A stretch of 64,000 nt of DNA. It comes from Candidatus Poribacteria bacterium. GTDB lineage: Bacteria; Poribacteria; WGA-4E; WGA-3G. Both the position numbers and the translations under genes were made by a program. The notes under the pieces were generated by a model. The model did not search any database and was not told the DNA's origin. It saw nothing but the letters and a program-made list of their open reading frames with translations. Location: contig CBDBFU010000027.1 of the NCBI GenBank assembly GCA_965205025.1, positions 1 to 64,000 on the forward strand. The letters are read 5' to 3'. Positions 6,261-64,000 of the stretch are shown here, in pieces. The first letter of the stretch is position 1; each line of letters begins with the position of its first letter.

Positions 6261-6290
6261 TAGATACAAAACAGGATGTAGTGAAAACTA

Positions 6291-30210: not shown

Positions 30211-30304
30211 AGGGAAGGATGGAACTGTAGTAGGTTGGAAGTGTGGAAGAATAGAAGGATGGACAGAAGAGTAGATGGAAGGGTGGACAGAAGAGGTGTA
30301 ACTG

Positions 30305-39599: not shown

Positions 39600-39863
39600 A
39601 TGACGTATGTGATTTGTGAACCTTGCATTGACGAGAAAGATAGTTCTTGTGTTGATGTGTGTCCTGTCGATTGCATTCATCCGCATCCAACGGATGCTGA
39701 GGATGAATTTGAAGAGGTTGAAATGCTCTACATTGATCCTGAAGAATGCATTGATTGTGGTGTATGTGAACCGGAATGTCCTGTTGAGGCTATCTTTATG
39801 GAAGAAGATGTGCCTGAAGAGTGGGAACATTTCATTGAGATTAATGCTGCGTATTTTGAATAA
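39600..39863 (+). CDS. Ferredoxin, FdxA/7Fe type, copy 2
   Basis: MTYVICEPC..CVDVCPVDCI..CIDCGVCEPECPVEAIF. Confidence 0.93.
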   Translation: MTYVICEPCIDEKDSSCVDVCPVDCIHPHPTDAEDEFEEVEMLYIDPEECIDCGVCEPECPVEAIFMEEDVPEEWEHFIEINAAYFE

Positions 39864-39930: not shown

Positions 39931-40085
39931 GCTGTTGGCTTTCAGCTATCGGCTATCAGTTAATATGGCTGTGCCTCGGATTTCGCGGATAAAAGGGTTT
40001 TGGGGACGGTTAAGTGTGAGATCACAAACTAAAAGTTTGTGGTACAAAGAGATGTTTTTTCTGAAAAACCAATTTTAAATGAAGA

Positions 40086-40160
40086 TACCCCCGACGAGAT
40101 TTGAACTCGTGTCGCCGCCGTGAAAGGGCGGTGTCCTTGGCCAGGCTAGACGACGGGGGC
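40086..40160 (-). tRNA. tRNA-Glu (TTC), CCA not encoded
   Basis: GCCCCCG acceptor, CCGCC-CTTTCAC-GGCGG anticodon arm, GAGTTCAAATCTC T arm. Confidence 0.95.
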
Positions 40161-40166
40161 ATAATT

Positions 40167-40242
40167 TGGTGAGCCGTACAGGAATCGAACCTGTGACCAC
40201 CTGATTAAAAGTCAGATGCTCTACCTGCTGAGCTAACGGCTC
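40167..40242 (-). tRNA. tRNA-Lys (TTT)
   Basis: GAGCCGT acceptor, TAGCTCAG, CTGAC-TTTTAA-TCAG anticodon arm, GGTTCGATTCC, ends ACCA. Confidence 0.96.
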
Positions 40243-40257
40243 AAAGCACAACGTATT

Positions 40258-40286
40258 ATTATACATAGATTTTGACGGATTGTCAA
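40258..40286 (-). promoter_or_regulatory. Consensus sigma70 promoter of the tRNA-Lys/Glu pair
   Basis: TTGACA-17 nt-TATAAT on the minus strand just upstream of tRNA-Lys. Confidence 0.85.
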
Positions 40287-40423: not shown

Positions 40424-43400
40424 CTACTTCAGGATCAACATTTTACGGGTAGCAGAAAACTCGTTTGCAGTGAATACGTAGAAATACACACCACTTGCCA
40501 CTTGCTCACCGATAGCATTGCGTCCATCCCAATAGGCTGCACGGCTCCGGTCTGTGTAGTAGCCCTCGGATTGATGTCCAAGTTTCAAGGTGCGTACCAC
40601 GTTTCCTGTTGTGTTGAAAATCGTAATCTGTACATTGGAATCCGTTGCTAACTGATACGGTATCCATGTTTCCGGATTAAACGGATTGGGATAGTTCGCA
40701 AGCAAACGTGTTTTTTCTGGTGATACGACTTCTAACAGACTCTGTAGATATGCCAGCGTATGTTGTGCTGTGAGCGAGTCGTTGTTGGAAGCAATCAACA
40801 GATCAATTTGCTTCTGAACTTCCTCACGTGATACCTTTGGAAGTTTCGCATCTGCGATTGGTGCAGCGTTGGTATCATCACGGTTATCAAACACAAGGAG
40901 CAGATCAAGGAAATTCACACGACCATCACCGTTGACATCAAGGCGTGCATTATCCGGATTCGTCTCTCCGAGTGCATCTGCTACTAATGCAGCATCTGTG
41001 TTATCAACCACGCCATCCTTATTGACATCGTATTTAGAGAAAGTTCCCGGTGGACGTGTCGGTGTTGTGCCGGCTGGCACAGAGATATCTCCGAGTGAAA
41101 CAAGGTCTGCGACGACAGCCTTGGCAGACTTACCGTTGATGTTGCTCTGCATGATTTTCCCACGGATGTTTGTCCAATACAGCTTTTTACCAGCTACATC
41201 AACGGAAATACCGTAGGGGGCAGCGCTTAATGAAATGAGCTCTTGAACATTACTGCCATCAAGATTAGCACTGTGGATTTTCCCTGCTGAACCGCTGGTT
41301 TCCTCTGTCCAGAACACTTTGCCAGCCCCAACAGCGATACTCCCCAATGTGTTATAACCTCTGGCGATTTGCCTTTCCCCTGATCCATCCACATTTGCCA
41401 AATGCACAGTTCCGCGCTCCGTTATCCAGAATATCTTGCCGGAACCAGTGTCAATCGCAACATCTTTGGGGGTGGTCAGACCGATAATCAGGTTCGCTTC
41501 ATATTGTGAACCGTCTATGTTGATGGCTTGTATCTTCCCGCGTTCGGTTGTAACGTAAATCTTACCGTTGACGGTATCGACAGTAATACCCGCAGGAACG
41601 GTCGAGAGATTCCGAATCAGCTGAATGTTTCCACCATTTAGGTTTGCGCTTCGGATTCTACCACTACTACTGGATGATCTTTCAACCCAGAAGAGTTTGT
41701 TGTTTGTAGCAACAAGACTCACAACATTTTGTACACTGGGAGCAACGGCTTCCACACTGCTGCCAACAAGTCGGTGTATTGTGCCGCTGTCCGTGTTAAT
41801 CCAATATGTATCTGCACGCTGTGATGCTGGCAGACGGATATCGGGTTCTGGGGGTGCTGGGTCTTCCGCTGTGGCGGTAAATGTGACACGATCAGAAACA
41901 CCTGAGACGCTTGCACGGACAGTGTTCCGTCCGGGATCATCCCCGAGGGTGAGGTCTGTTTGTGCACGTCCTCTTGAATTTGTGGTGACCGATGTTGACG
42001 AAAGGCTACCGCCTCCTGCTGTTACGCTAAATGTCACGGTAACACCTGAAACAACATCGTCATCTTCGTCAAGTACTTCAACAACAAGCGGGATTGTTAA
42101 GTTCTGTTCCCGGGTCACCGCGTTGGTTATTACCTGAAACGATCTCAATAGAATCGGCTAAATCACCGACTGTAATGGTAAAGCGAACAGATGAAAGTCC
42201 TGGAACTCTTGCATCTATAAAGTGTGTACCTGCAGCACGTGGTCGGAATTCTGCTTCGGCTTCACCGTTCCGATCGGTTGTTGCACTGCGCGTAACTGTG
42301 CCACTACCTCTTAAACTGAACGTGACGGTTACACCTTGCAGATCGTTACCATCTTCATCTGTGACGTGGACGATGAGGGGTTGGTCAAGATAACGGTTCG
42401 GTGTTCCGCGCTGGTTATTCCCTGAAACGATTACGATATCGCCTGGTACAAGTGCACCTGTAGCGTCAAAGAACACATCTGTCACAGTAGTGATGCCGAC
42501 GCTTGCGCGAACCCTGTTATCTTCGTCATCATCACCTAAGACAAGGTATGCACGCACTTCACCGTTTGTATCACTGTCGACTGTTAAGGTATTACTACCA
42601 CTTGTAGCACTTCCTGAAGTTGAAAGTTCACCATCGCCATCTACGATTGTAAACGTCACCTGTATACCTTGTACAGTAGTCGCAGCATTGGTATCCCGAA
42701 CGACTTTGAGGACAAATGGATCGTCAAGTACTTCGCCGCGATTTCCTTCTTGGTTGTCACCGGAAACGCTATCGCTCCGCGTCTTTCAATAGCCGAATAC
42801 CGAATACCGTAACCGTTGCAGTACCAGTATTCACACCTGTGGTAGACGTCACGGTAGCGGTGATGGTATATTGTCCAGGTGTAGTCGGTAGTCTGAACGT
42901 ATTTGGTGTAGTTGCTGTGCCAGTGACATCTGAGGTTAAGATATACGTACCGACATTCGTTCGATCACTGGTTCTGACCACGTCAAGTATGACACGTTGG
43001 TTCGCTGTCCTTTGTGGCAGCAGTATCCCTGATTGTGTGAGGTGCACCTGGTGCGCCAGAAGTACTCGTTTGTCCAGCGTTATTCGTTTGGATAATAGTG
43101 AGTGTACCTGTCGTTGGTGGTTGTTGCGTACCTGTAGACGATATTGTGAAAGTTACATAGTTTCTTCCACTGACTGTAACATTTGAATCTACAACCACTG
43201 CAGTTACCGTCTGTGTTGTAGGACTTGAAAGAATTCTATATGAATAGGAAGCAATACCGTTACTATCCGTTCTATCTGATCCAATGCGTACATTGTTGTT
43301 ATTGCGGAACTCGACATTAACATTGCGAACAGCTCTCTGGGAACTATCCACAACACGTGCCGACAATGTAACAGAACTGTTAGCAGATCCCGATAAAGAA

Positions 43401-46378: not shown

Positions 46379-46753
46379 TATATGTCTCCTGAATATAAAA
46401 TATATAATGTCTTCTGATAATGGTTTCTGAAAAGTGAAAAGGTTTTACGTAATCTTGTGTTTCTTCAATAACGGTAGGGCAGTTTCCTATTTTCGCATGC
46501 CCGGTAGGTTCGGTTTCCCGGGGAATGCCTAATGGCATTCATACCGTTGATTCACCGAACCGGGTTTGTTCCAATTGCGTACATAAAGTTTTTCGCGAAG
46601 GATCCAGTGCGATTAGGAAATCGCACCTACCGGTCTGGGAAAACCACTAAATTGACGCCTATATGGCATTCATACCGTTGATTCACCGCACCTACCGTAA
46701 ATCATAAATATCGCGATCAGGAGGTTGCTCCTACAGAATGTATTCTTGTGTAT

Positions 46754-46791
46754 ATAAAGTAAGGACATTGCAAGCAATGTCCTTACTTTAT
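46754..46791. terminator. 18-bp perfect hairpin downstream of the left lamin-tail gene
   Basis: ATAAAGTAAGGACATTGC-AA-GCAATGTCCTTACTTTAT; inverted twin at 61836-61873. Confidence 0.65.
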
Positions 46792-46954
46792 TGAATAGCT
46801 TAGGTTAGCTAAGTATTCCCATTAGGAAACTGTTGTACCGGTTTCTCAACAGCCTCCTAACTGGGGAATAGTTTTAGTTAGATTTCCTACAGTAAGGATA
46901 CTGCAGCATCCTTACTGAGAGGAGAATTGGTTAAATTATCCCTGAAATTCAACC

Positions 46955-49900: not shown

Positions 49901-51866
49901 GACCAACATTAAATGGCATCTTTTTCTCTGCGTTCCCATTCCCCGCGTCATCGTGCACTACATTCGCCTTTACCACGACTTCCACGGTCGTCTCACCGAT
50001 GTTTGGGATAAGCGTGAAGGTTGCAGTTTTTGGATTCGCGCTCGCATTCCATTTGAAACTACCTGCCTTTATGCTGCCTCTATTCACATCAACTTCATTT
50101 CTAGCAATTGCTGCGTTGCTTGCCAGAGCTACATTGTCCATCGGTGTAATAGTGATCATTGCACCATCAAGTGAATCAACATCACCAGCTTTATTAGGCG
50201 CTACAGGCTCTGGACAAAGGTCGGTATATTGAACAAGATTGCGTGCCGCAATTGTAACAGTCGGAGCATCACCTTCTGGGTTATATACACCTTCCGCACC
50301 GGGTGTGCGATTACCTGCCAGGTCTTGTGCAGCATTAGCTCTCACTTCAACCCTGACTGCTGTATTCGCTGCTCTGGGACGGACATATAACGTGTAACTC
50401 TCTGCAGAATCTCCGTGTGCGGTGGTATCCTTCGTAAGATCGCCATCGGCTAACGGATACGCATCACCAGTATCAATATCAATATCATTGATCGTAAGTG
50501 CTGGAATTTCTGCGGTAAGGTCAGTACGAGTAGAATAAAGTTTTTCGTTAGAAAGAATTCTGAACATCAACAAACCTTTTTCGTTACGATCAGTCGTAGC
50601 TGGATCATCTACAGCGGTGGGTGCTCCAGGCGGTACAACTGTCAATACCGGTGAATCGTTATCTATAACATGAACCGTCACCGTTTCAGATTTTGCGTCC
50701 GATGTCATACCGTTGTTGTTTGTGATCGCTCCTGCTTCAACTGTTAATTTCACATCTCCAGCAGCAGCAGGCGTAACTGTTATTGTCGTTACCATACCAG
50801 CTGTAGCGAAGTTTTTAATGGTTCCGCCTTCAACTGAAACCTCATTGAAGGACAGAACTAAATCCGCACCGGTACCAGCAACAGTATCACTAACAGTTAC
50901 AGTAAACGTGACATCTGTAGTTGCCAAGTCAGAGGCTGCGATCGGACCCGTTGACGGAGCAGGATCGTTCTTTGCAATGGCTACTGTTGGTTTTGTGGTT
51001 ACAGGTGCATCTGGTAAAAAAGGAACGAGTGTAAAGATATCCGGCGTCCCCGTGCACTATTATCAGCATTTCGACTTGATGGAAGGTTGTTCCAACGTGC
51101 AAGTGGATCTACTGCTCGAAAATCGGGCAACGCTTGTGCAGAACCACCTTCTACGACTACTTCAAACAGAATGTTTTTCCCGTCAATAGCGGGTTCCGTA
51201 GAAGCATCGTCTCCAGCTGCCTCTGCAGCCACTGGCAGTGCCCCGTTAGCAAGCGTAAATGTTACATCAAACATCCTTTTAGAATTATTTGCTGTAGCAG
51301 TATCATTGTCCGTATCAACAGGAGCAAATGCAACACTACTTATAGCAGTCGTGAGACTTCCAAAACCACCGCCAGTAGCAGCACCGTAATAAAGCAGCTC
51401 ATTGGTTCCTTCAACACCGATTTTGACGGTGAGTAGATCGCCCAAGGGTTCCGCCATCAGATGTAAATAAACCATCAACAGTAGTGGGTGCCTCGTAAAG
51501 CACGTCTTCACTAAATGTAATTCTAAAGGTAGCAGCAGTTACTGCTGGATAAACAGCAGAATCAGGATCCATTAGGCGTGTGGTTGCGACCCTAGCCAGT
51601 ACATACGTTGTACCACCAAATGTTATGGAGGTAGCTGGTTCAGCATCAGCACCGGTAGCTCCAACAGTAACCGTCGGATGGTCACCTAAGACGTGATCTG
51701 CTGTGGGTGCATTTACCAAGTTACCGTCTGCATCAGTATCAGTGTGTGAGTTATCATCTGCATTTTCATGTGCCATCACAGATGTTCCAACAAACACACC
51801 CCCAAGTGCAAGCAGTAAAATTAAAGTTGTTATACAATATGTCAATTTATTTGACAATAACATCAT
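46955..51866 (-). CDS. Large (~1630 aa) secreted lamin-tail-domain/Ig-like surface protein, left copy; split by about 3 frameshifts
   Basis: Starts MMLLSNKLTYCITT like 56868..61673; VRISEVMWA, VIINEVAN..EWIELKN, ISEIMY..QWIELYN LTD motifs; ends LPVELSHF...LTTTWSELKASQ; four ORFs collinear with the intact paralogue. Confidence 0.85.
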
Positions 51867-52001
51867 ATACTCCTTATAAAGTTGTTGAATTCAAGTTAAA
51901 GATTCAGGGAAAATTAAATCTTCTTAACCTAATCTTCTAAACTAAATTAAACAGACAGGGATAACCTGTTTGTCTGTCTTTTGATTGATTTCGCTATTTT
52001 G

Positions 52002-52031
52002 AATTAGACAAAAGGGGATTTTTGTCTAATT
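52002..52031. other. Left recombination site: 12-bp perfect arms around a 6-bp asymmetric core
   Basis: AATTAGACAAAA-GGGGAT-TTTTGTCTAATT. Confidence 0.8.
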
Positions 52032-52177
52032 GCGTCAATTCACGGTAGTCAATCATCTTCACATTGGATTGTCGAAGCTAAACTTTTCTTAGGTCTGTTG
52101 CTTCGTTCCAATCCACAATATCCTTAAACTTATGTTGCAGTCGGTGTTTAGAACCGTTATCCGCAAACTTGTCAGTA

Positions 52178-52206
52178 ATTATAGGTTATTAATAATATAA
52201 TGTCAA
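52178..52206 (-). promoter_or_regulatory. Consensus sigma70 promoter P1 inside the putative invertible segment, pointing at the left operon
   Basis: TTGACA-TTATATTATTAATAACC(17)-TATAAT on the minus strand. Confidence 0.85.
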
Positions 52207-52434
52207 ATGTTTTTTCTATTGTTTATGTATTAAACATTAGAACCGGGGCTTCAATCTGTTTAAAATTCTGTTTTTCAATGTTGTGTGTATGCTTTTCTGT
52301 ACCCGTTCTATACACCGTTTCGGCTGTACCGTTTTTGAAGTTCCCCTATGAACAGATTTTCATTTTAACATTATTAAAAAATTTAATCAACAATTTTTTT
52401 GCGTTTTATTACTTTATACGCACAATTGTGGATT

Positions 52435-52463
52435 ATTATACACTATTATACGTTTTATGTCAA
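52435..52463 (-). promoter_or_regulatory. Consensus sigma70 promoter P2, tandem with P1
   Basis: TTGACA-TAAAACGTATAATAGTG(17)-TATAAT on the minus strand. Confidence 0.8.
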
Positions 52464-52689
52464 GCAATAATTACAAAAAAACATACACCTCTGTTTAAAT
52501 AGAGTGTTTTACATTTATGACGGTTTGTTAGGTTTGTATCCTAACATTCCCGTATTATACATTATATATATACGTTATAAGTCAAATAATGGATACAAAA
52601 AAATTGAAAAAAGTTTCTGAACGATGGATTACGCGGATTTCACGGAGAAGAGGAAAGCCCGGGGCTTATTGTTTTGCGTTTTTACGTTT

Positions 52690-53790
52690 TCTACACACCT
52701 TTCGCCCCTCTGGGGCTTACGGTATTGGTGATAACGACTTCTATAAACATTCCGTCCCTACGGGACTCAAGAACATGGATCAAGCATTTTTGCTATAGAC
52801 ATTTCGTTCCTACGGAACTCAGGAATATGGAGCAAATATCTTTGCTATAAACATTTCGTAGACAGGTCTATTGAAGACACCCATGTGTTTTTAGAACGGA
52901 TATAGTCCCGTAGGGACGGAATGTCTATAGAAAACGTGTGTATCCCCATAAGTGAGTCCCGTAGGGACGGAATGTCTATATCAACATATAGGTGGAGTTT
53001 TCAAGAGACGTATGATCTTCTAAGAATCGCTCTCTAACACTGGATGAAAAATATATCTTTCATCATAATCAACATTAAATCGTTTTAACAACTCAATATA
53101 TTCTTCTCTAAACGACTTCTGCTTATGGTGCTTTTCTTGATTAAGGATATAATTTGATACACTCTCTATTTGTGAATGTGCGTAAGTAAAGGCAGAATAA
53201 CCTTCTTGCCATTTGAATTGACCGGCAACCCATTGCTTCTTGTTTATGAATCGTGATGAATTTGCTTTAATATCTTTTACCAATTCCGATAGTGCCATTG
53301 AAGGATCTATACCAACAAAAATGTGTATATGGTCTGGCATAGAATTGATTTGGATCACTTTATGTTTATTATTGGTGATTATACCTGTAATGAATTTGTG
53401 AAGTTCTTCTTTATGTTCCTTCGGAATTAGGTTTTGACGATGTTCAACTGCAAAAACAATATGTATATATAATTGTGTATATGTGTTTGCCATAGTATTA
53501 CTCCTTACGGTTTGTATTTTATCATTTTGTCCTTACCCAATCAACGAGAAATGTGCTATAGACATTCCGTCCCTACGGGACTCAAGAATATGGAGCAAAT
53601 ATCTTTGCTATAGACATTCCGTTCCTACGGAACTCAGGAATATGGAGCAAACATCTTTTCTATAAACATTTCGTAGATAGGTTTATTGAATACTCCCATG
53701 TGTTTTTAGAATGGATACAGTCCCGTAGGGACGGAATGTCTATATCAACATATAGGTGGAGTTTTCAAGACACGTATGATCTTCTATAAA
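52690..53790. repeat. REP-like palindromes flanking tnpA on both sides
   Basis: CTATA(A/G)ACATT(C/T)CGT(C/T)CCTACGG(G/A)ACTC at 52741, 52793, 53556, 53608 and inverted at ~52904, ~52955, ~53719. Confidence 0.85.
53020..53493 (-). mobile_element. tnpA: IS200/IS605-family Y1 (HUH) transposase, probably REP-associated (RAYT)
   Basis: YTQLYIHIVF, MPDHIHI (HUH), KANSSRFIN, FKWQEGY, NYILNQEKHH; embedded in REP arrays; no tnpB. Confidence 0.88.
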
Positions 53791-53958
53791 CATTTCGTAG
53801 ATAGGTCTATTCACCCAGGTGTCTTTACATCCGCTGAAGTATATGTTTCTACAGGTTGAGTATTAGGAAAGTTGACTCTAACTATTCAATTTCAATGGTA
53901 TGAAATAGTATAGCCAAAGAAGGTATTTACAGATTAATAGCAGAAAAAGATAATAGTA

Positions 53959-54210
53959 TTAGGAGAGATTGACAAGATGATGCCCACGTTCAAGTTTAAC
54001 CTGATGTAAATCAAATTCAACAAGTCGAATTACACCCGGTTCATCGTCATATACTACACCGATAGATGCAATTGTTTCTTCGGTTCCTAAAGGATCTTTA
54101 AATTCAACTATATCACGGACTTTTCCAGGATTCCCGTCAACAACAATTCTATCACCAACATTTAAGTCTTTTACATTCTGGAAAGGAATATACTTTATAG
54201 TATCTGTCAT
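53959..54210 (-). CDS. Small hypothetical protein (possibly an SH3/KOW-like beta-barrel)
   Basis: 83-aa ORF with AAGGA RBS; DLNVGDRIVVDG..GKV. Confidence 0.55.
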   Translation of the reverse strand: MTDTIKYIPFQNVKDLNVGDRIVVDGNPGKVRDIVEFKDPLGTEETIASIGVVYDDEPGVIRLVEFDLHQVKLERGHHLVNLS

Positions 54211-54515
54211 TTTAGATTCCTTATAATATTATATTTGAATATATGAAATAGGATTGTCAGGATGTAAATTACAAATTGAATCTGTATTGCCAAATTACTT
54301 TACTGAACTAACAAGTAGTTTTATTTTGAAATACAATAGACGGTAAAGAAATAATCAACACATTCTGATTATAAACTATAAAGTTCAAAATGTCAAATTA
54401 CAATTCATTCTTATACCATTTCCAATTGATAGATTTACATTATGATTTAAGTAAAACAGGGACAATCATATACAGATCTATGAGTCCTGGGCTAATTTCT
54501 TTTTTATTTGCTTTT

Positions 54516-55092
54516 CTACGCACCTTTCGCCCCTCTGGGCTTATTGTTTTGCGTTTTTACGTTTTCTACACACCTTTCGCCCCTCTGGGGCTTATACATT
54601 ATAATAGTCACGTTTTCTACACACCTTTCGCCCCTCAAATCAACGGTATGAATGCGCGTATGGCATTCCCCGGGGCTTAGGGTATTGGTGATAACGACTT
54701 CTATAAACATTCCGTCCCTACGGGACTCAAGAATGTGTAGCACGCATTTTTGCTATAGACATTTCGTCCCGATGGGACTCAAGAATGTGTAGCACGCATT
54801 TTTGCTATAAACATTCCGTCCCTACGGGACTCAAGAATGTGTAGCACGCATTTTTGCTATAGACATTCCGTCCCGATGGGACTCAAGAATGTGTAGCACG
54901 CATTTTTGCTATAGACATTTCGTTCCTGCGGAACTCAGGAATATGGAACAAATATCTTTGCTATAAACATTTCGTAGATAGGTTTATTGAAGACACCCAT
55001 GTGTTTTTAGAATGGATATAGTCCCGTAGGGACGGAATGTCTATAGAAAACGTGTGTATTCCATAATTGAGTCCCGTAGGGACGGAATGTTT
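54516..55092. repeat. REP array including five 52-bp tandem units (54701-54960)
   Basis: Units start at 54701, 54753, 54805, 54857 and 54909; three CACCTTTCGCCCCTC(T)GGG(G)C hairpins upstream; two inverted copies at ~55020 and ~55069. Confidence 0.9.
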
Positions 55093-55298
55093 ATTGAAAT
55101 CCGCGAATCAAAAAACTGATAGCCAACAGCTGATAGCCAAACAAAAACAACAAGGAAACACAGACATCAAATCGGCTTCCTTGTTGTTTTTGCTTGTTAA
55201 GTATATATATATTAATGTATTGTGTAGAGTGAATACGTTTCCGAACACCTACCAATCACCAATACAGATTATTCGTATAAAATTAACAGGTTTCAGTT

Positions 55299-56045
55299 TC
55301 ACGCTACTGCAGATGTATTTATATTTTGGATTCCTTTCTTATTGACCATCTCCTCAGGATCATACCCACGCCGAACCAGTTCTCCAAATAAAATATCATC
55401 CGCCACCTCTCCAACAGATGTTGAAGTATAGGTTTTCGGTTTTTCTGCCATTACAGAGATGGCTTCGCTTGCTTGCCTCAGTTTTGTATAGTTTACGCCA
55501 AGATATCTTTGTGTAGTCTTAACGTCGTTATGCCCGAGCATCTCACGTACCGTATATATATCGTTAGTTTGCTCATAAAGACGTTGTGCGTAACTTTTAC
55601 GCAAAGAATGTGTAGCAAGCTTCCCGTTGAGTCCGGCTTTTTTAAAGGCAACCTTTAATATAAGGTGTGCGGATTTCCGTGTCATCGGTTGTTTTCCCTG
55701 TCCGTTCCTTGAAGGGAAAACCGGTCGTGACATATTAAGTCGCTTCCCATACTGTTCTTGATGCCACTTGATAATTTCTTGAACCGCTATAGCTCCATCA
55801 GAATTCAGTGGCACTGCGCGTGATGTTTCTTTCCCCTTAACAATAGATTTGTCAAAAAGCAGATCCGTTACAGGCGCATTGTTCTGATAGACATCTGTGA
55901 GTCGAAGCCCCAACAGTTCAGAAATCCGTCCACCGGTAGAAACACCGAGTATAAACAGACATTTATTGCGTATGGCGAAAGTGCCTTCAAAGCATGCCAT
56001 AACCCGGCGTATTTCATCGTTCATGAGAGGTCTTGTACCTTTCAT
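55299..56045 (-). CDS. Tyrosine recombinase, catalytic-domain-only (FimB/FimE-like), candidate invertase
   Basis: RN..LF.LG.STGGRISELL (R), VKGK (K), HSLRKS (HxxR), LGH, TTQRY (Y); AGGAGG RBS before ATG 56045; no N-terminal core- or arm-binding domain. Confidence 0.9.
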   Translation of the reverse strand: MKGTRPLMNDEIRRVMACFEGTFAIRNKCLFILGVSTGGRISELLGLRLTDVYQNNAPVTDLLFDKSIVKGKETSRAVPLNSDGAIAVQEIIKWHQEQYGKRLNMSRPVFPSRNGQGKQPMTRKSAHLILKVAFKKAGLNGKLATHSLRKSYAQRLYEQTNDIYTVREMLGHNDVKTTQRYLGVNYTKLRQASEAISVMAEKPKTYTSTSVGEVADDILFGELVRRGYDPEEMVNKKGIQNINTSAVA

Positions 56046-56700
56046 GGACACCTCCTAAAATAGATTTTATGTATAAAATTTATGTATAAGTATGTGTAAA
56101 TATGTATAAAGCAGTATATGCCGTATATTATGGTTATACGCTTTAATATATAAGCGTGTTGCAAGATAATTTGGCAGTAGTAGACATATTAAACACTGTT
56201 CTAATCACGCTTTAACCCGTGTGTCCCAACGCTCATACCTCCTCTGTATGGGGCGCTTCGATTCCCATTAGCGTCAATTTAGGAAAAAAATTTTGTATCC
56301 CAGGCCGGTAGGTGCGGTTTCCCAACCGCACCGAATTTGTGCCAAATCTTTGATTGAAAGCCTTCGTGTATAATCCACTTCGGTGAATCAACGGTATGAA
56401 TGCCATAAGGCATTCCCCGGGAAACCGAAGCTACCATTATTAAAGGTGAACTAAATTGACGCCTATAATGAAGGACCTCCAATTCCCGACGCTTCCATCC
56501 TTCCACCTCCTCTGTAGGAGGGAATTCCGATTCCCGATTCTTCCGATATATGATTTTCAAATATATAGTTAATCATATTAAGACAATAAACTTTTTATTA
56601 AGTAATATATTATTTATATATGACTTAATACGAATACATTTATTAACAGATACAATGTTTATAGGTAATTATCAATTACTTTTTATGAAATCATTATTTG

Positions 56701-56730
56701 AATGTGACAAAAATCCCCTTTTGTCAGGTT
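56701..56730. other. Right recombination site, core inverted relative to the left site
   Basis: AATGTGACAAAA-ATCCCC-TTTTGTCAGGTT; the central 20 bp is the exact reverse complement of 52007-52026. Confidence 0.8.
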
Positions 56731-56867
56731 TAGACATGGTGGTCATAGATCAAAAAGACAAACAGGTTATCCCTGTCTGTTTAAATATTTAGTTTAGAAG
56801 ATTAGGTTAAGAAGATTTAATTTTCCCTGAATCTTTAACTTGAATTCAACAACTTTATAAGGAGTAT

Positions 56868-59800
56868 ATGATGTTATTGTCAAATAAATTGACATATTGT
56901 ATAACAACTTTTATTTTCCTGGTGGCGTTTGTAGCGGTGCCGGTGATGGCACACACGCCTGGTGACGGTCATGACGCTGCGCATGATGGTGATAATCCTG
57001 CAACTGCTGATGTAGTAGAAACAGATTTTGCAGAAGAAGTCAATCACACTCACACAGCCGCGCCAATGGTATCTGCTATTACAGCAGTTGACACAAAGGG
57101 TCTCCCCGCAGTGGGTGGTACATTAGTCAGCAATGTAGACGGAAGAGATATAGTGCTTGTGGATGATCTAACAGCAGCTGATGATGCACGCTTAGTTATT
57201 GCTCTTACTGATCATGATAATGATGCCACAACTGGCACTCCCCCAACTCCTGAGCAGCTCGCGGCGGGTGCTTTTCAATTGAAGATCACGTTTAATGAGG
57301 ATGTGTATCCCGTAGCTCAGGCTGGTACTACTGCTGGTGTAGCACCTGCCATTGCTGTTGATACTGGTGCTTTTACTGGTGTGACATTCCTCGCAGCAAC
57401 TAAAAATGGAGTGGATGTTTCTACCTCATTCACCCTTGGTACACTTACACGCGTACAAACTGCAGGGGCTGATACTACTGAAGCTACAGATGATGAATTT
57501 TCTTTAAGAGAATTTCTGGTACCGGTTACGGTGGGTGCAGGTTTAACGGAGCTTCAGCTCCCTGTATCGCTTTGGGTAACCGTGGGTGCTAATCAAGTAT
57601 ATACCTTATCGAAAATTGTCAATGGTGAAACAGTACAAGGTCGTGGAAACACAGAATATAGCACTCCTGGATCAGATCCGTTCTCCGTGGATGGTTATGT
57701 GGCACCAACAATAACAACACCAGATGATACTGCAGGTCCGGATATTGTTACATTCACTTCTTCCGCAGCTGATTCTGATGGTAATGTAACTTTTACGCTT
57801 ACCTTTAGTGAGGCTCTTGGAACAAGTGGTCTTATTCCAGCGGACCTTACGATTACTGGTGGAACGTTAGTAACAGACGGTATTACACCGGCAGGTTCAG
57901 CAACGGTTTATATGATAAAGGTTACCCCAGACGATGATCCGACAGAGGCTGAAGTTACAGTAAGGCTTAATGATGGGTCTGTATCAGATAAAGTCGATGG
58001 AGCTCGTTATGTGGAACCTATGGACGAAGCCGATGTGAAGATAGGTAGATATGATACCGTGAACCCAACGGTGAATGCAGTTGCTACAGGTGTTGTTGGA
58101 ACAGGTACAGGAACTGATGGCAACGGTATAGCAGTTGGCATGGTGAAACTTAGCGTCACTTTCAGTGAAGAACTTGGTAGTGACATGGCTGGTTTCGAAA
58201 ATGATGATATTGATAGAACGAATAGTAATGTGTTGTTAACTAACACCGATCCTATGTTAGCTACAATGCCTGAAGGCAACAAAACTGTTTGGGAATTGAC
58301 GGTTACACCTGTGCCAGCAAATGCCGCACAAGTTGTGATTGTTATTAAAGCAGGTTCAGTCATGGACATGGCTACTAATCCGTTATTGCAGGATACGATT
58401 GTAACGTGGACACGTCCTGGGGCTGACACAGAGAGTGATAATCCGGTCGTTACGATTGCACTCGATGCTGGTATGACTTACATTGACTCTGTGAGTGGTG
58501 GTACAGTTACCGTTACAGCCTCTGATAGTGGTAGTGGACTTGCGACCGGTGCGGAAATTATTGAAACTGAAGTCACTATTGAAAATGGAAGCATCATGGC
58601 AGGTAGTTTCACGAAAGGTGCAACTGCAACGTTCACTCTTATTCCAAATGTCGGTGCCATATCGGTAAAAGTGACGGTCGCCGCAGGTGCTGTGGCTGAC
58701 GCTGATGGTAATACCAATGTCCTTCAAACGGACATGACTAAGCCGAACGCGAACCCGATGACATTCAAAGTCGGTCCGACATTCACGATTCCCGCAAATA
58801 CAATATTGGTTGTCACCAAAACAGAAGGGTTGACACATCAATATCTTTCAGATCAACCGAGATTGCCGGTTACCTCAAATCCACCTGTGCCTGCTCCAGA
58901 TATTCAAACGGCTGTTTGGGATAATATGCCGGATTTAGAAGTGCTCTTTAGTCTATCTGGTGGCGGTAACGGCGGTACAATTAACTTAACGGAAGCAATG
59001 GGTCAGGACGAACTTTCACAGACACGTGATGGAGACAAACAACAAAGGAACTCTGTCCGTATATCTGAAGTGATGTGGGCATCTGATCTATCCATGCGTG
59101 GTGCACAAGACGACGCAGAAGCCGCTGAACAGTGGATTGAAATTAGTAATGATACAGGCGAAGAGGTTGAAATCTTCTTGTTCGCCAGAACAGGACGAGA
59201 TTCTGCTATCAACGTTGATGATGTAGAAGATAGAGTCGGTAACGCATATAATGGTAGTCCTGGTTCTGCACCGTGGGCAGTTAAGGGTCAGAACGGGAAT
59301 AGTTATACTGGTGTAGACTTTATCTCAATGCACAGAAGTTACGTGACCGGTGATAATCGCGGTTATGTGAATGGAACATCAAGTGGTCATTGGCATAATT
59401 CGGATAGAGAGTATCTCACACTGGCGACAAGAAACCCGAATGATGGTGCGCTTTATAATTATATCGGTTCACCGGGTCGTCCACATACTTTCAATCTAAC
59501 ACTACCGAATACCCGTGAACGTACTACAATGGTTGCGCGAGTAAAAGAGAAAAATGATGACGGCTCGGACAAAAAAGATGGAAACGGTAAGCAGATATAC
59601 AAAAGTGTGCCTACTGTTATCATCAATGAAGTTGCGAACCGTGACAATGCTAATGCCGAGTATGAATGGATTGAACTCAAGAACGTTAGCAGTAGCAATG
59701 TTAATTTACGGAACTGGATGATTTCAATGGTAACAGAAGTCGGAACAGACCGTCCATTAGTTCAGTTTCCGAATAACAATAATGCCCAGATTGGACCTGG

Positions 59801-61673
59801 AGAAGTTCTCCTGCTACTTGCTACGGATCCGAGACATGACGATGATCACCCGATCGCTGTCGGTCTGAACGTTGATATTCCTCATGCAAGTGATCAAGTA
59901 GATGGTCTGGGTCTCGTTGAAGGAGATAACAGTAACCGTAAACCACCAAGACAAAAAGTGGTAACTTTCGAAAATGGTGGTCTGCCTGATAATGGCAATT
60001 ATATATTGATTCTCCGTAGACATGACAACCATGAAGGTCATAGATCTGGTGTTGATGGCGGTAAAGGTGTTGCTGAAACCGGTGAAGCAGACATTGATAA
60101 AATCATGGATATTGCCGGGCACCATGAAGGATTGAGTAAATCCAACTATCCAGCGTCAACCCCAGAAGGTCTCAATAGTACAACCCTCTGGCCCTTGTGG
60201 AACTTCAACGGTGATATGCGTCCGCATCGTGGACATGGCGACTGGAATCACAGACGTCATAATCGTATTGAGGCAAACAAGGTTCGTTATCGTCAACACG
60301 TTTCTACTTATGCGAAAAACGATGGTGATGGTGGAACACCCGGTAACCGTGCAGGTACAGGTACAAATCACAAAGATGAAAATGTTGGAAACTACGCTTT
60401 CCGTGATGCAGATTATACCGGCCTCGGTTATAAACGTACTGCCAGAATAGCTGGCTACAATCACGGTACACCCGGATACGATGGTAATAGTGTTGGGAAT
60501 ACCGGTATTGTCAAAGCTACGGCTGCAGATGCTATGGTAACCATCAGTGAGGTCATGTATTCCACTGGTCCTGATGCTGATAATCCGATATTACCGCAGT
60601 GGATTGAGCTTTACAATAGTTCACCTACCGTCGCGGTTAATCTGAGAGGTTGGAAACTCCGCTTTGAAATGCTTGATGCTGATGGCAATCCGATGGATAG
60701 CCTCATGTACCTCGAATTCAATAAGAGTCGGGTGAAAACTATCCTTCCACAACAGACAGTTCTGATTGTTGCGGGGAATGCCAGACAAGCAAATAGTGAT
60801 TCTGCGACAGGTGGCGATGTGTTTAATGACAATCGTGTCTTCAATGTCTTCAGAGATTATGGTGGCGCGAATAAGTTCGGCGCGAACACACGTTATATGT
60901 TCTTCGATCAGAAAGTATTTTACATCGGAGTCATTGACAAAGATGGCAAGGTCGTAGACGAAGTCGGTAACCTTGACGGTGATTCCAGAACAAGTGATAC
61001 GAATAACTGGGAATTCCCATCTGGTATCGCTGCTGACGATAACCGTACATCTATCATCCGTGTCTATGATGATGCTGATGGTCTTGGCGGTGAATCTGGT
61101 AAGGCACGCACTGGAAAGAACACAGCAGAAAGTAATGTCATGCCTATTTTCGGAAGCGGTGACAAGAAAATGACAGATGATGACGGCATTGCTGATAAGT
61201 GGAGTTGGATACCCGCTGTGAATACCGAACGGGAATTCAAAATCACTATCAAGTCTACTTGGTACGGTGACGAAGACGATTACGGTACACCTGGAAACCG
61301 TCCGGGTATGGTGCTACCTGTTGAGTTATCACACTTCCGTCCCACACTTGAAGATGGCGAAGTTACGATCCGTTGGACAACCGAATCCGAACTTGACAAC
61401 GCCGGATTTAATATCCTTCGTAGTGAAACTCGGGACGGTGAGTATACACAGATCAACGCTGAGCTTATCGAAGGTGCTGGTACCACAGGTGAACGTAACA
61501 CCTATAAATGGGTTGATCAGACTGCCAAACCAGGTGTTGTGTACTACTACCAAATTGAAGATGTATCTTTTGCTGGTGAACGCCAAGCACTTGCTATAAC
61601 CAAGTTGAAAGGCTTAATCTCAGCAGAGAACAAACTTACAACGACGTGGAGTGAGCTAAAAGCTTCACAATAA
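56868..61673 (+). CDS. Large (1601 aa) secreted lamin-tail-domain/Ig-like surface protein, right copy (intact)
   Basis: AAGGAG RBS, signal peptide, Big_13-like TFSE repeats, three LTD-like modules, FN3-like LPVELSHF domain, KLTTTWSELKASQ tail. Confidence 0.9.
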   Translation: MMLLSNKLTYCITTFIFLVAFVAVPVMAHTPGDGHDAAHDGDNPATADVVETDFAEEVNHTHTAAPMVSAITAVDTKGLPAVGGTLVSNVDGRDIVLVDDLTAADDARLVIALTDHDNDATTGTPPTPEQLAAGAFQLKITFNEDVYPVAQAGTTAGVAPAIAVDTGAFTGVTFLAATKNGVDVSTSFTLGTLTRVQTAGADTTEATDDEFSLREFLVPVTVGAGLTELQLPVSLWVTVGANQVYTLSKIVNGETVQGRGNTEYSTPGSDPFSVDGYVAPTITTPDDTAGPDIVTFTSSAADSDGNVTFTLTFSEALGTSGLIPADLTITGGTLVTDGITPAGSATVYMIKVTPDDDPTEAEVTVRLNDGSVSDKVDGARYVEPMDEADVKIGRYDTVNPTVNAVATGVVGTGTGTDGNGIAVGMVKLSVTFSEELGSDMAGFENDDIDRTNSNVLLTNTDPMLATMPEGNKTVWELTVTPVPANAAQVVIVIKAGSVMDMATNPLLQDTIVTWTRPGADTESDNPVVTIALDAGMTYIDSVSGGTVTVTASDSGSGLATGAEIIETEVTIENGSIMAGSFTKGATATFTLIPNVGAISVKVTVAAGAVADADGNTNVLQTDMTKPNANPMTFKVGPTFTIPANTILVVTKTEGLTHQYLSDQPRLPVTSNPPVPAPDIQTAVWDNMPDLEVLFSLSGGGNGGTINLTEAMGQDELSQTRDGDKQQRNSVRISEVMWASDLSMRGAQDDAEAAEQWIEISNDTGEEVEIFLFARTGRDSAINVDDVEDRVGNAYNGSPGSAPWAVKGQNGNSYTGVDFISMHRSYVTGDNRGYVNGTSSGHWHNSDREYLTLATRNPNDGALYNYIGSPGRPHTFNLTLPNTRERTTMVARVKEKNDDGSDKKDGNGKQIYKSVPTVIINEVANRDNANAEYEWIELKNVSSSNVNLRNWMISMVTEVGTDRPLVQFPNNNNAQIGPGEVLLLLATDPRHDDDHPIAVGLNVDIPHASDQVDGLGLVEGDNSNRKPPRQKVVTFENGGLPDNGNYILILRRHDNHEGHRSGVDGGKGVAETGEADIDKIMDIAGHHEGLSKSNYPASTPEGLNSTTLWPLWNFNGDMRPHRGHGDWNHRRHNRIEANKVRYRQHVSTYAKNDGDGGTPGNRAGTGTNHKDENVGNYAFRDADYTGLGYKRTARIAGYNHGTPGYDGNSVGNTGIVKATAADAMVTISEVMYSTGPDADNPILPQWIELYNSSPTVAVNLRGWKLRFEMLDADGNPMDSLMYLEFNKSRVKTILPQQTVLIVAGNARQANSDSATGGDVFNDNRVFNVFRDYGGANKFGANTRYMFFDQKVFYIGVIDKDGKVVDEVGNLDGDSRTSDTNNWEFPSGIAADDNRTSIIRVYDDADGLGGESGKARTGKNTAESNVMPIFGSGDKKMTDDDGIADKWSWIPAVNTEREFKITIKSTWYGDEDDYGTPGNRPGMVLPVELSHFRPTLEDGEVTIRWTTESELDNAGFNILRSETRDGEYTQINAELIEGAGTTGERNTYKWVDQTAKPGVVYYYQIEDVSFAGERQALAITKLKGLISAENKLTTTWSELKASQ

Positions 61674-61835
61674 GGTTGAATTTCAGGGATAATTTAACCA
61701 ATTCTCCTCACAGTAAGGATGCTGCAGTATCCTTACTGTGGGAAATCTAACTAAAACTATTCCCGTTTAGGAGACTGTTGAAAATCCGGTGCAACAGTTT
61801 CCTACTGGGAATACTTAGCTAACCTAAGCTATTCA

Positions 61836-61873
61836 ATAAAGTAAGGACATTGCTTGCAATGTCCTTACTTTAT
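61836..61873. terminator. 18-bp perfect hairpin downstream of the right lamin-tail gene
   Basis: ATAAAGTAAGGACATTGC-TT-GCAATGTCCTTACTTTAT. Confidence 0.65.
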
Positions 61874-62354
61874 ATACACACAGTTTCCTACGATATGATT
61901 TATGGTAGGTTCGGTGAATCAACGGTATGAACACCTTTAGGCGTTCCCCGGGAAACCGCATCATATAGGCGTCAATTTAGTGGTTTTCCCAGGCCGGTAG
62001 GTGCGATTTCCTAATCGCACTGGATCCTTCGCGAAAAAATTTATGAACGCAATTGGAACAAACCCGGTTCGGTGAATCAACGGTATGAACACCTTTAGGC
62101 GTTCCCCGGGAAACCGAACCTACCGACCTGAAATTTATAGCGTACTTCTCCTTAAATTGACGCTAATGAATCAACGGTATGAATGCCTTATGGCATTCCC
62201 TGTGGTTAGGAAAACGCATCTACCGGGCATGAAAAAATAGGAAACGGCACTACCTTTGTTGAAGAAACACAAGATTACATAAAACCTTTTTCAAATTTCA
62301 GAAGACATTATCGAAGACATCATATTTTTCTTATATTTATTTAGGAGACATACA

Positions 62355-64000
62355 ATGAATAACACATTTTTCACGCGAAAGCTTGGACTCGGTATCCTCA
62401 TAGCGCTTGTATTCGCGTTTGGTGTGCAGAGCGTAGCAGACGCACAGTTGCGAGTTAGCAGCAGCAGAGGTGATTTACAAGTCAAACCTTTGGTTGCGAA
62501 CCAAACATTTGAGTTCTCGTTTTATATAAGCGGTATTCCAGGAAGCAGACCTGATACTTCTCCTGGGACTGCCGATACTGAGCGGGAAGAGATAACGATA
62601 ACTCCAACTGGCGGGGCTTTCACTGAAGTAAGAATGGGTAGCACACGCTACACATCAGCAACCAAAACTCTTACAGGGGCTTTCACGCTACAAGAATGGC
62701 ATGCCGATAATACCAATGGGATTGCTACTACCGCGGATGATACTGATCTTGGTGCTACTGAAGGTGACCTTGCTACCGGCACTGTAACTGTGACGGTTGA
62801 ACCTACAGCTGTCGGACCTATTACAGTTACAGTTGCTGCAGCAGGCGATTCAACCGGCGATTTTGAAACACTAACATTCACGGTTTATGCTGTACAAATT
62901 CCTACGGACGTTCAAGGTCTCAGGTTTGCAGCAAGCACTCCGACCGTAAATCCAACAACTAAAACAACCTATCCACCATTCGATCCGAATGTTCCCTTAT
63001 ATGATGAGGAAGTTATTGTCACGGTATTTGATGCTTCTGACGCAGCTGGAGGCAATCGGGCGTATGCACTTGTTGATTTTGAAGTTTTTGAGGGACCCGG
63101 ATTTGTTTATCAGGATCTGAACGATGACTCAGAACCTGACCCTGGTGAAAGCAGAAATTCAAAAACTACAAGAACATTAACTCGTCTGGGTACAGATAAC
63201 GATATGGCAAGGGTAAGACTGCGGACGAATGGCGGCACTAACAAAGTTCGCGCAACAATTACTAACACACAACCACCCCAAACCTACGAGATTACTTATC
63301 TCTATCAAGGAGACGGGACAACGACGACACCACCGCCACAACCAGGAGGTCCACAACTTACTGTTAACGCACCTGCCACCGGCACTGTCGGGCAACCGAT
63401 TACTGTTACAGCGACTGTCTCTGATAATCGCGCCCGTCGAGTGGTCGCTTTCTCAAGTAATAGAGGTGGCACTTTTTCACAAACTCCTATACTAACGGAG
63501 AGTAACGGTGTTGCAACAATACAGTTCACACCGAGTACTCCCGGGACAGTAACCATCACCGCACGCTCGACCGGCTATACAAACGGTACCGATACGGTTC
63601 AGGTCTCGTCAGCCCTCCCTCGCCTCACAGTGCTTACACCGACACCACCCATCAGAGGAAATACGGGGCAAAGACTAAACATAGTTATTGGCACAGGAGC
63701 TCCTGCGGGTCTAACAGTCACACTGACAGGCACCAATTTTCAACCTGCCATTGCCCAAGGTGTCACACTTTCCAACGGTTCCGTTACGATCCCCGTTACG
63801 CTACCGAATAATCCTGGGGGTCATCTACTCACTGCCAGTGCTCCTGGATATCAAAATACGAGTATCTCAGTGATTGTTGGAGGGGCAACGACTGGTGGCC
63901 CAGTGCAGTTAACGATTCCCAGCGGACAAACACAAACCGTGTCTATCGGGAGTAATGCTCCGTTGCGGGTACGTGTAACAAGTACAGTGTCGAATGTAAG
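62355..64000 (+). CDS. Ig-like Thr-rich secreted surface protein, counterpart of 40424..46378 (runs off the window end)
   Basis: AGGAG RBS; MNNTFFTRKLGLGILIALVFAFGVQSVADAQ matches the left gene's signal peptide; appears open to the window edge, which would explain its absence from the ORF track. Confidence 0.85.
   Translation, partial: MNNTFFTRKLGLGILIALVFAFGVQSVADAQLRVSSSRGDLQVKPLVANQTFEFSFYISGIPGSRPDTSPGTADTEREEITITPTGGAFTEVRMGSTRYTSATKTLTGAFTLQEWHADNTNGIATTADDTDLGATEGDLATGTVTVTVEPTAVGPITVTVAAAGDSTGDFETLTFTVYAVQIPTDVQGLRFAASTPTVNPTTKTTYPPFDPNVPLYDEEVIVTVFDASDAAGGNRAYALVDFEVFEGPGFVYQDLNDDSEPDPGESRNSKTTRTLTRLGTDNDMARVRLRTNGGTNKVRATITNTQPPQTYEITYLYQGDGTTTTPPPQPGGPQLTVNAPATGTVGQPITVTATVSDNRARRVVAFSSNRGGTFSQTPILTESNGVATIQFTPSTPGTVTITARSTGYTNGTDTVQVSSALPRLTVLTPTPPIRGNTGQRLNIVIGTGAPAGLTVTLTGTNFQPAIAQGVTLSNGSVTIPVTLPNNPGGHLLTASAPGYQNTSISVIVGGATTGGPVQLTIPSGQTQTVSIGSNAPLRVRVTSTVSNV

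Follow-up and report, generated by a model that had tools for sequence, protein, structure and literature searches.

A 64,000-nt stretch of contig CBDBFU010000027.1 from a Candidatus Poribacteria assembly, hereafter the window, was found to carry two large gene units that mirror each other, one on the minus strand at 40424-52026 and one on the plus strand from 56706 to beyond position 64000 (positions are window coordinates, and genes were read under translation table 11). Each unit consists of a gene for a lamin-tail-domain (LTD) protein of ~1600 aa, followed by a gene for a protein with Ig-like repeats. The mirror itself is confirmed. We consider it probable that the locus is an old head-to-head pair of paralogues of a conserved LTD-Ig unit for secreted or exposed binding proteins, in which recombination homogenises the rear parts and shuffles them against two front types that have been kept. 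This reading builds on the layout, the homology between the units, their domain content, the linkage of the two genes in other contigs, and a conflict between gene trees, all of which were observed. Judging from the domain content only, the proteins probably serve a sponge symbiont in binding, either exposed on the cell or secreted.

The outermost gene on the left, Ig-L, runs from 46378 to 40424 on the minus strand (about 1985 codons; identified from open reading frames (ORFs), Pfam, and TIGR04183). A spacer on the same strand (46379..46954) separates it from LTD-L, which runs from 51866 to 46955 (about 1635 codons; ORFs and Pfam). On the far side of a 4.7-kb centre, the plus strand carries LTD-R (56868..61673), an intact gene for a protein of 1601 aa (P0001; ORF, Pfam, and protein search), then a second spacer (61674..62354), and finally Ig-R from 62355. 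Of Ig-R, the window holds the first 548 of 1518 codons (62355..64000; ORF and the full-length protein P0262), and the remainder lies past its end. The initial annotation of the region had described this order of Ig(-), LTD(-), centre, LTD(+), and Ig(+), and it is borne out by both the ORFs and the inverted homology.

Colinear inverted homology between 46286-52026 and 56706-62447 was recovered by a repeat finder and by blastn of the right arm against the reverse-complemented left arm. The blastn E-values ranged from 0 to 1e-56, which places the mirror homology far beyond chance. The longest alignment joins the LTD rear parts and 3' flanks (right 59282-61880 versus left 49344-46747, 84.9% over 2629 nt) and is preceded by a less similar one (right 58757-59282 versus left 49920-49377, 77.3% identity). 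Within the LTD 3' ends and flanks, the arms agree at 93% over 577 nt and at 94% over 119 nt; a 164-nt match in the LTD-Ig spacer reaches 96%, and the 5' ends of the Ig genes are alike at 81-88% (110 nt at 81%). The inner inverted repeats (left arm 51813..52026, minus strand; right arm 56706..56921, plus strand) hold the LTD 5' leaders together with the first codons, ~54-64 nt of coding sequence in the left arm, and are 90.4% identical over 219 nt and 96% identical over the inner 145 nt. As the initial annotation had noted, the two LTD copies share this leader and their first 14 residues (MMLLSNKLTYCITT), which are the same in both, and the window translations likewise contain an Ig signal peptide common to both copies as far as ADAQ.

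Between these constant ends, the LTD pair is strongly graded. The two proteins are 81% identical over aa 870-1601 of LTD-R and 54% identical over aa 475-870, and upstream of this only the signal peptide aligns. Computed in finer windows, the pair is unalignable at aa 15-270, shares 15-53% amino acid identity at aa 271-630 and 63-95% at aa 631-1470, and reaches 90-97% in the last ~130 codons. This gradient substantiates the earlier description of a pair diverged in front and near-identical in the rear and 3' flank. Synonymous divergence (dS) between the copies follows the same course: it is saturated at aa 271-630, falls to 0.3-0.8 at aa 631-1470, and is about 0.2 in the last 130 codons, while the ratio of nonsynonymous to synonymous divergence (dN/dS) lies at 0.07-0.56 in all windows. 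For LTD-R and its orthologue on another Poribacteria contig, L001, dS amounts to 0.53 at aa 31-540, 1.36 at aa 541-990, and 0.74 at aa 991-1601, with dN/dS of 0.64 (0.52-0.79), 0.32, and 0.19 in the same three segments. The front value of 0.64 indicates relaxed constraint, not demonstrated diversifying selection. dN/dS never exceeded 1, either in the windows between the two copies or between LTD-R and L001, and the maxima of 0.56 for the pair and 0.64 for the R-type front do not support the earlier suggestion that the fronts are antigenic variants.

The ancestry of the LTD pair appears to be mosaic. For both copies, the best-matching homologue shifts between successive 200-aa windows. In the rear tree (732 aa), LTD-R and LTD-L are sisters, with support of 90 in the Shimodaira-Hasegawa-like approximate likelihood ratio test (SH-aLRT) under a mixture model with 35 rows and of 89 under LG+G4 with 29 rows; they fall together within a clade with the homologue P0002 (99), and two further homologues, P0029 and P0030, are sisters of each other (99). 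In the front tree (388 columns, 29 rows, LG+G4), LTD-L groups with P0029 (100) and LTD-R with P0030 and P0003 (100). In approximately unbiased (AU) tests, the front data reject the pairing of LTD-R with LTD-L (p 8e-5) and of P0029 with P0030 (4e-6), and the rear data reject the pairing of LTD-L with P0029 (6e-4) and of LTD-R with P0030 and P0003 (5e-44). The short sequences P0018 and P0028 and the 2136-aa P0021 were left out of the front tree, the AU tests, and the 29-row rear tree; P0018, P0028, P0034, and P0035 were left out of the 35-row rear tree. Since fronts group by type and rears by genome, the conflict between the two trees points to recombination or gene conversion.

The Ig proteins show a comparable division into front and rear. 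Ig-L begins with a signal peptide and a divergent N-terminal part of ~1130 aa containing Big_1/MG-like Ig repeats, followed by Big_1 repeats; next come a YWTD (Ldl_recept_b) propeller, a dockerin, and a type A tail of the type IX secretion system (T9SS) with FlgD_ig similarity. The Pfam scores are 41.8 bits for Ldl_recept_b and 40.3 bits for the dockerin, and TIGR04183 reaches 34.1 bits in Ig-L and 28.8 bits in the Ig protein of L001 (cut-off 23). Whether the right Ig gene ends in the same YWTD-dockerin-tail module could be answered from P0262, a 1518-aa protein from the window's own 134,293-nt contig whose first 548 aa are identical to the window translation and which is therefore Ig-R. Its precomputed domains are Big_1, Ldl_recept_b, dockerin, FlgD_ig, and Por_Secre_tail (PF18962), and it is 88% identical to Ig-L over aa 964-1518, 78% over aa 731-967, and about 30% over aa 1-650. 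From these domains and the rear identity, Ig-R ends in the same module as Ig-L, and the architecture of the right gene is the same as that of the left; an unrelated architecture, which would have refuted the initial annotation, is not seen. The rear of Ig-L is 90% identical to P0266, 89% to P0263, and 88% to P0262, and for its 1131-aa front no relative above 44% was found among the 35 best Ig homologues. The Ig protein search gave 5236 matches among 8000 scored candidates, and the homologues from named Poribacteria sources are annotated either as 'T9SS type A sorting domain-containing protein' or as 'Ig-like domain-containing protein'. None of the scanned window genes encodes T9SS machinery (PorK/L/M/N, Sov, PorU/V), although no search was aimed at the machinery. 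Elsewhere in the window, an M6-type peptidase (12522-14735) has a C-terminal domain of the FlgD_ig/CHU_C type, which is another T9SS-like tail.

LTD-R opens with a signal peptide and an R-type variable N-terminal part that contains Big_12, continues with LTD units, and closes with a C-terminal domain of 121 aa. LTD-L has the same plan with an L-type variable N-terminal part, of which P0029 is the nearest intact relative, and three LTD-like units. PF00932 matches LTD-R with 87.2 bits and the rear piece of LTD-L with 79.6 bits (Pfam cut-off 34.3), and by eye three units can be delimited in LTD-R, starting with ISE(V/I)M or INEVA and ending with GTPG or GSPG. Neither TIGR04183 nor PF18962 matched the LTD proteins in the Pfam and NCBIfam scans, and LTD-R gave no match to PDB sequences at E<=0.01. 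No S-layer or anchoring family, such as SLH, was found in the four genes with Pfam and NCBIfam, which leaves the 'S-layer-like' label of the initial annotation unsupported; a text search of a Poribacteria imaging paper (PMC5087111) likewise gave no occurrence of the term S-layer. The protein search with the LTD protein returned 2602 matches at E<=0.001 among 8000 scored candidates, and the homologues from the few named sources are annotated as 'lamin tail domain-containing protein [Candidatus Poribacteria bacterium]'. The pattern of constant ends around a divergent front also holds in 27 LTD homologues from other contigs: their mean pairwise identity, at 0.50 over the 50 columns that contain the signal peptide, stays within 0.32-0.50 as far as column 550 and then takes values of 0.60-0.92, ending at 0.92.

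The last 121 aa of the LTD proteins were matched by no Pfam or NCBIfam model. Searched on its own, this tail matched 22,776 representative clusters at E<=1e-3; the number fell to 3278 at a threshold of 1e-10 and to 554 at 1e-30. Inspection by eye of the 150 listed proteins, which are 181-2222 aa in length, showed the match ending within ~4 residues of the C-terminus in 145 and internal or multiple weak matches in the other five. When 42 tail-bearing proteins were scanned with Pfam, half of them (21) contained LTD, three of these behind He_PIG, cadherin, or fn3 fronts; four had LRR without LTD, one had NPCBM, three had other domains, and 13 had nothing at E<=1e-5. A protein-atlas search with the tail returned, as leads only, unnamed clusters at 0.90 and Por_Secre_tail and fn3 at 0.78. 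A position at the extreme C-terminus behind differing fronts is the expected look of a shared sorting or anchoring module, for which the 121-aa tail is a candidate. The expectation of conserved export and rear parts thus fits the LTD proteins, which carry export signals and a tail that is C-terminal in thousands of differently fronted proteins.

The LTD-Ig unit is not confined to the window. A scan of genome contigs confirmed two of 79 candidate stretches as relatives (L001 and L002), both on contigs of Candidatus Poribacteria metagenome-assembled genomes. L001 contains an LTD gene (1581 aa), 379 nt of spacer, and an Ig gene (1519 aa). Its LTD protein is 60% identical to LTD-R and its Ig protein 64% identical to the Ig-R front, so that both are of the right-hand type; the rear of its Ig protein is 72% identical to Ig-L. 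Among the closest Ig homologues (P0241-P0275), 25 of 35 lie together with a member of the top 30 LTD homologues, where 'the same contig' was judged by proxy from exactly equal sizes of the source contigs. By this proxy, the sharing spans 19 distinct contig sizes, 14 of which are no larger than 72 kb, and the LTD-Ig unit recurs on at least 14 other short contigs. Larger examples are a 1.39-Mb contig with P0007, P0027, P0263, and P0269, a 5.24-Mb contig with P0011 and P0270, and a 230,704-nt contig with P0005 and P0266. On each of two ~30-kb contigs, one listed LTD homologue is accompanied by three or four from the Ig family. L002 is a distant relative, and its two tandem LTD genes (1741-7481; 752 and 1059 aa) are followed by WD40 and metallopeptidase-like genes instead of an Ig gene. 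This suggests that the pairing with an Ig gene is a feature of the closer subfamily, and that local duplication of LTD genes is not confined to the mirrored form. A foreign origin of the cassettes was considered and rejected: the G+C content at third codon positions (GC3) is 0.29-0.43 in the cassettes and 0.26-0.40 in housekeeping genes, and the higher G+C of the cassettes sits in codon position 2, reflecting amino acid content.

These comparisons also bear on the possibility that the mirror is an assembly artefact, either a join of two strains' alleles of one locus or a fold-back chimera. The assembly does have errors, and repeat-rich loci are prone to misjoins. A fold-back would, however, give near-identical arms that adjoin each other, whereas the identity of the arms ranges from unalignable to 96% and the 4.7-kb centre consists of unique genes. 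The outer flanks differ as well: Ig-L adjoins tRNA-Lys/Glu, and the window has no counterpart of the genes that lie downstream of the L001 orthologue of the R type. It is normal in the family for one contig to hold several paralogues, as does a 1.39-Mb contig with two LTD and two Ig homologues, and the L-type and R-type fronts have separate relatives in other contigs. We therefore regard an artefact as very improbable.

Returning to the paralogue pair shaped by recombination, both protein families are very large and follow one plan, in which the export signal and the rear module are constant and the front, or 'passenger', is exchangeable. In the LTD protein, a Sec-type signal peptide is followed by a fast-evolving Ig-like front, three LTD-like units, and the 121-aa tail; the Ig protein, at 1500-2000 aa, carries a signal peptide, a variable Big_1 array, the YWTD propeller, the dockerin, and the T9SS type A tail. 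The two LTD front types are each closer to relatives in other genomes than to their neighbour, and the rear two-thirds and the non-coding flanks are most alike within the genome. Exchange by recombination or gene conversion, both from one inverted copy to the other and across the family, would keep the constant parts alike and reshuffle them against the old front types.

Several points weigh against this interpretation. The sisterhood of the two LTD rears is not strongly supported (89-90), and P0002, from another contig, is as near to LTD-R as LTD-L is (83-84% identity). The groupings for the AU tests were chosen after viewing the trees, P0029 and P0030 may come from different genomes, and equal size of source contigs is only a proxy for one contig. 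There is no signal of within-genome homogenisation in the rear of the Ig pair. Purifying selection explains the conservation of the Ig rear and may also underlie the LTD gradient in part. The most similar flanks could have been made artificially alike when a repeat-rich long-read assembly was polished. Finally, the surface location and the binding function are predictions from domains.

Neither left gene is a single open frame under table 11. LTD-L contains three frame changes, at 51483-51445, at 51077-51044 (with a G4 run at 51051), and at 49150, where the left copy has GGGG and the right copy GGG. Ig-L also contains three, at ~43038-43031, 42785-42778, and 42091-42081. One explanation is that the left unit is a decaying pseudogene pair and the right unit alone is functional. 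In keeping with this, the breaks are concentrated: the 11.4 kb of the left unit contain six and the 6.4 kb of the right contain none, and just two of them fall within homopolymers of at least four bases. Genes elsewhere in the window are fragmented too, which is a mark of assembly indel error: in the region 1-3364, ftsH (2-334, 371-667) has two one-base indels that compensate each other at a distance of ~60 nt, one in a T5 run and the other in a G3 run, and folP (791-1003, 906-1148) and acpS (1624-1893) are also in pieces. Considering that essential genes such as ftsH and folP are broken alike, assembly indel error is the likelier cause of the breaks in the left genes, and the local errors limit any pseudogene call in the window. 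Further arguing against decay, the left genes are otherwise open and colinear over their full length with intact homologues (Ig-L with L001 Ig, P0262, P0263, and P0266; LTD-L with P0029), the dN/dS range of the LTD pair given above is below 1, and the strongest promoters of the locus point at the left copy. Real decay of the left unit is accordingly judged unlikely. An alternative genetic code was ruled out as a cause, the breaks being frame changes and most genes being open under table 11.

The genes and perfect promoter sites of the 4.7-kb centre all lie on the minus strand. Two sites matching the sigma-70 consensus TTGACA-N17-TATAAT perfectly stand just inside the left arm (52178-52206 and 52435-52463), both directed toward LTD-L, with no ORF of at least 31 aa between them and the gene. 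Inside the right arm, the best site toward LTD-R matches at 9 of 12 positions, the background level in this consensus matching. Given that perfect TTGACA-N16-18-TATAAT sites occur five times in the 64 kb against 0.06 expected, and that one stands directly before tRNA-Lys, such sites are probably real promoters. As assembled, expression would appear to be biased to the left LTD gene, on the basis of predicted promoter use.

Next in the centre are palindromic repeat arrays around an IS200/Y1-transposase gene (52662..55101, no strand assigned; repeat finder, Pfam, and NCBIfam). The palindromic repeat GTCCCGTAGGGACGGAATG occurs in 13 copies within 52748-55089, in arrays on both sides of the transposase gene (53020-53493, minus strand), which matches NF033573 with 85.2 bits (cut-off 55). 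The arrangement with flanking palindromes is REPtron-like, but the RAYT model NF047646 reaches only 32.2 bits (cut-off 80). Between the transposase and a recombinase gene lies an 83-aa ORF (53959-54210, minus strand) with its own perfect promoter at 54368-54396; it has no family in Pfam or PHROGs and no protein-atlas match reaching 0.9, and PHROGs returned only generic integrase and transposase families. The recombinase itself (55299..56051, minus strand, 250 aa) is a tyrosine recombinase, identified by PF00589 (100.1 bits), NCBIfam, PDB XerD, and alignment. It comprises the catalytic domain only, aligning to residues 125-288 of XerD, and lacks the N-terminal core-binding domain. Its catalytic residues are all present: R42, K72, H148, R151, H174, and Y183 are invariant in 16 aligned relatives. 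It falls below the cut-off of every named invertase or Xer model in NCBIfam, and the one model that it matches from end to end is that of the FimB/FimE-type 'tyrosine-type DNA invertase' (positions 5-194 of 198; 53.8 bits, cut-off 222).

This configuration raises the question of a promoter-inversion switch, which would be compatible with the paralogue pair as an addition to it. The small tyrosine recombinase, or RecA acting on the ~215-bp leader repeats, would invert the 4.7-kb segment 52027-56705, and the two promoters would serve LTD-L in one orientation and LTD-R in the other, so that a single clone would include two alternative surface types. Recombination between the larger rear repeats (46286-47440 versus 61188-62447) could in turn invert the inner 14 kb and re-pair LTD with Ig genes. 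Taken together, the locus would be a two-state surface switch in which each cell displays one LTD type, a nested 14-kb inversion re-pairs LTD and Ig genes, and conserved ends let the family swap fronts. We put forward the switch, and likewise this fuller version of it, as tentative and rather unlikely. The layout resembles known systems in which opposed homologues with common 5' ends surround a segment with a promoter and a recombinase, and the identity of the leader arms exceeds the synonymous-site identity of the nearest conserved coding windows (dS about 0.2). The second orientation of 52027-56705 was nowhere encountered, the basis being the assembled sequence only.

The evidence on the recombinase is divided. 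Of its 16 closest homologues after the window's own (P0122-P0137), 13 are on contigs of at most 2 kb (951-1758 nt), as would be expected of a gene that is enclosed by repeats in those assemblies too. However, its family is very large (2446 matches, with 90% clusters of up to 269 members), and it stands beside an IS200-like gene and repeat arrays, so that it may be mobile DNA. Among 120 listed recombinase homologues, only the window contig and one contig of 5.44 Mb are shared with an LTD homologue by the size proxy. The R-type orthologue in L001 likewise can be read in two ways. It has a perfect TTGACA-N18-TATAAT site upstream, in a contig that ends 343 nt before the gene; yet its upstream region aligns weakly with that of the right-hand gene in the window (score 36 versus a shuffle maximum of 32), which hints at the decay of a resident promoter and not at a mobile one.

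Structured non-coding sequence bears on the switch in the leaders and in the spacers. Each leader folds into three hairpins (z -3.2 and -3.4), including one at 51951-51973 on the left and one at 56758-56780 on the right with the core AAACAGGTTATCCCTGT, which was found only in the two window leaders and the leader of L001. This confinement is in line with a switch, although RNA structure could also account for the conservation of the leaders. Rfam returned only two tRNAs at the gathering score in the window, and nothing at E<=0.1 within 46300-62400. Between each LTD gene and its Ig gene there are three strong hairpins. The left spacer carries perfect hairpins (e.g. 46754-46791) and is 94-96% identical to the right spacer, where hairpins lie at 61711-61742 and 61836-61873. 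Because of these hairpins, a flipped promoter need not drive the Ig gene, and a flip would probably affect the LTD gene and not, as the initial annotation had suggested, the gene pair.

The spacers also hold a ~64-nt repeat with the core GAATCAACGGTATGAA, which forms a long imperfect hairpin and is present in two copies in the left spacer and three in the right. Altogether, seven copies of it lie at 46502-46706, 54637, 56372-56435, and 61903-62218, all in spacers of the locus, and none was found in the first 40 kb of the window. A separate 43-nt inverted match (91%) connects 39160-39202, in a ferredoxin region, with 56500-56542 upstream of LTD-R, and may represent a third dispersed repeat.

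Other features of the window lie outside the mirrored units. The genes for tRNA-Glu(ttc) and tRNA-Lys(ttt) at 40084-40286 stand behind a perfect TTGACA-N17-TATAAT site and 138 nt from the end of Ig-L. Beside them, two tandem duplicate genes for 87-aa 4Fe-4S ferredoxins (39256-39519 and 39600-39863) are 79-87% identical in nucleotides, and a direct repeat of 37 nt stands on either side of the duplicate (39114 and 40016). A BrnT-family toxin gene with an overlapping downstream ORF and a Phd/YefM-type antitoxin gene (24389-24869 and 35661-35954) are toxin-antitoxin remnants or pairs, situated beside ileS and a gene for a TonB-dependent receptor. Several genes encode trypsin-like (HtrA-type) proteases (18263-20752 and 29099-32653). 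The protease at 19709-20752 begins at model position 37, with a possible frame break near 20752-20797, and another HtrA-type protease forms a fusion with TPR repeats and an FGE-sulfatase domain.

The wider interest of the locus lies in how Poribacteria, an abundant group of uncultivated sponge symbionts, present themselves to their host. Multigene families whose exposed products keep their ends and vary in their passengers, with copies that recombine with one another, are well known; the locus described here adds a well-resolved member in a phylum for which we found no published case. A literature search returned nothing joining 'Poribacteria' and 'lamin tail', and 'Poribacteria' occurred with 'phase variation' only in work that is unrelated by title and abstract. 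Of 680 papers on inversion and phase variation, the ten ranked highest do not contain 'sponge symbiont'. A transcriptome paper on Poribacteria mentions only that transcription is high for a few genes with Ig-like domains. The huge LTD and Ig-repeat families are built from export and rear modules that stay constant and fronts that can be exchanged, and two old LTD front types are retained side by side in one genome, where recombination probably shuffles fronts against rears. The 121-aa tail, found in more than 22,000 protein clusters and covered by no family model, is a sorting or anchoring candidate worth defining. If the inversion switch were at work, phase variation would reach sponge symbionts, beyond pathogens and gut commensals, and a simple read-based assay could report the surface state of symbionts in metagenomes.

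Among known systems, the locus resembles sap of Campylobacter fetus, in which homologous genes for surface proteins, facing in opposite directions and conserved at their 5' ends, enclose a promoter segment of several kb and recombination among the homologues changes the expressed type. The sap segment is an invertible 6 kb with a single promoter, and its recombination depends on RecA. The products of sap are proven S-layer subunits with type I export, a conserved N-terminal anchor, and a variable rear; in the Poribacteria locus, by contrast, for which no S-layer is known, the front is variable and the rear constant, and a tyrosine recombinase gene lies in the segment. In this last respect, it is closer to vpma/Xer1 of Mycoplasma agalactiae and mba-UU376 of Ureaplasma, where a tyrosine recombinase stands beside a family of surface proteins with common 5' ends and inversions shift a single promoter among the genes. 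Together with sap, both are comparable inversion systems (PMC3887049, PMC5634654, PMC3047005). Unlike the small lipoproteins of these wall-less bacteria, with their short, defined recombination sites and demonstrated switching, the Poribacteria proteins are 1500-2000 aa long, the repeats measure ~215 bp, and switching is a proposal from the layout.

The Ig proteins are similar to T9SS cargo of Bacteroidota in that they end in a domain passing TIGR04183, and the NCBI name of the L001 Ig orthologue is 'T9SS type A sorting domain-containing protein'. The organism is, however, a poribacterium and not a member of Bacteroidota, and the LTD proteins end in the other, 121-aa domain without a model. 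For the pairing of inverted copies itself, a precedent is provided by tufA and tufB of Salmonella, inverted duplicate genes that undergo concerted evolution by gene conversion. As in tufA/tufB, the LTD genes are inverted paralogues of one chromosome that are more alike than orthologues over part of their length. Unlike in tufA/tufB, only the rear and the flanks of the LTD pair are kept alike, and the persistence of the fronts as two old types suggests that conversion tracts are bounded, or selected against, in the front.

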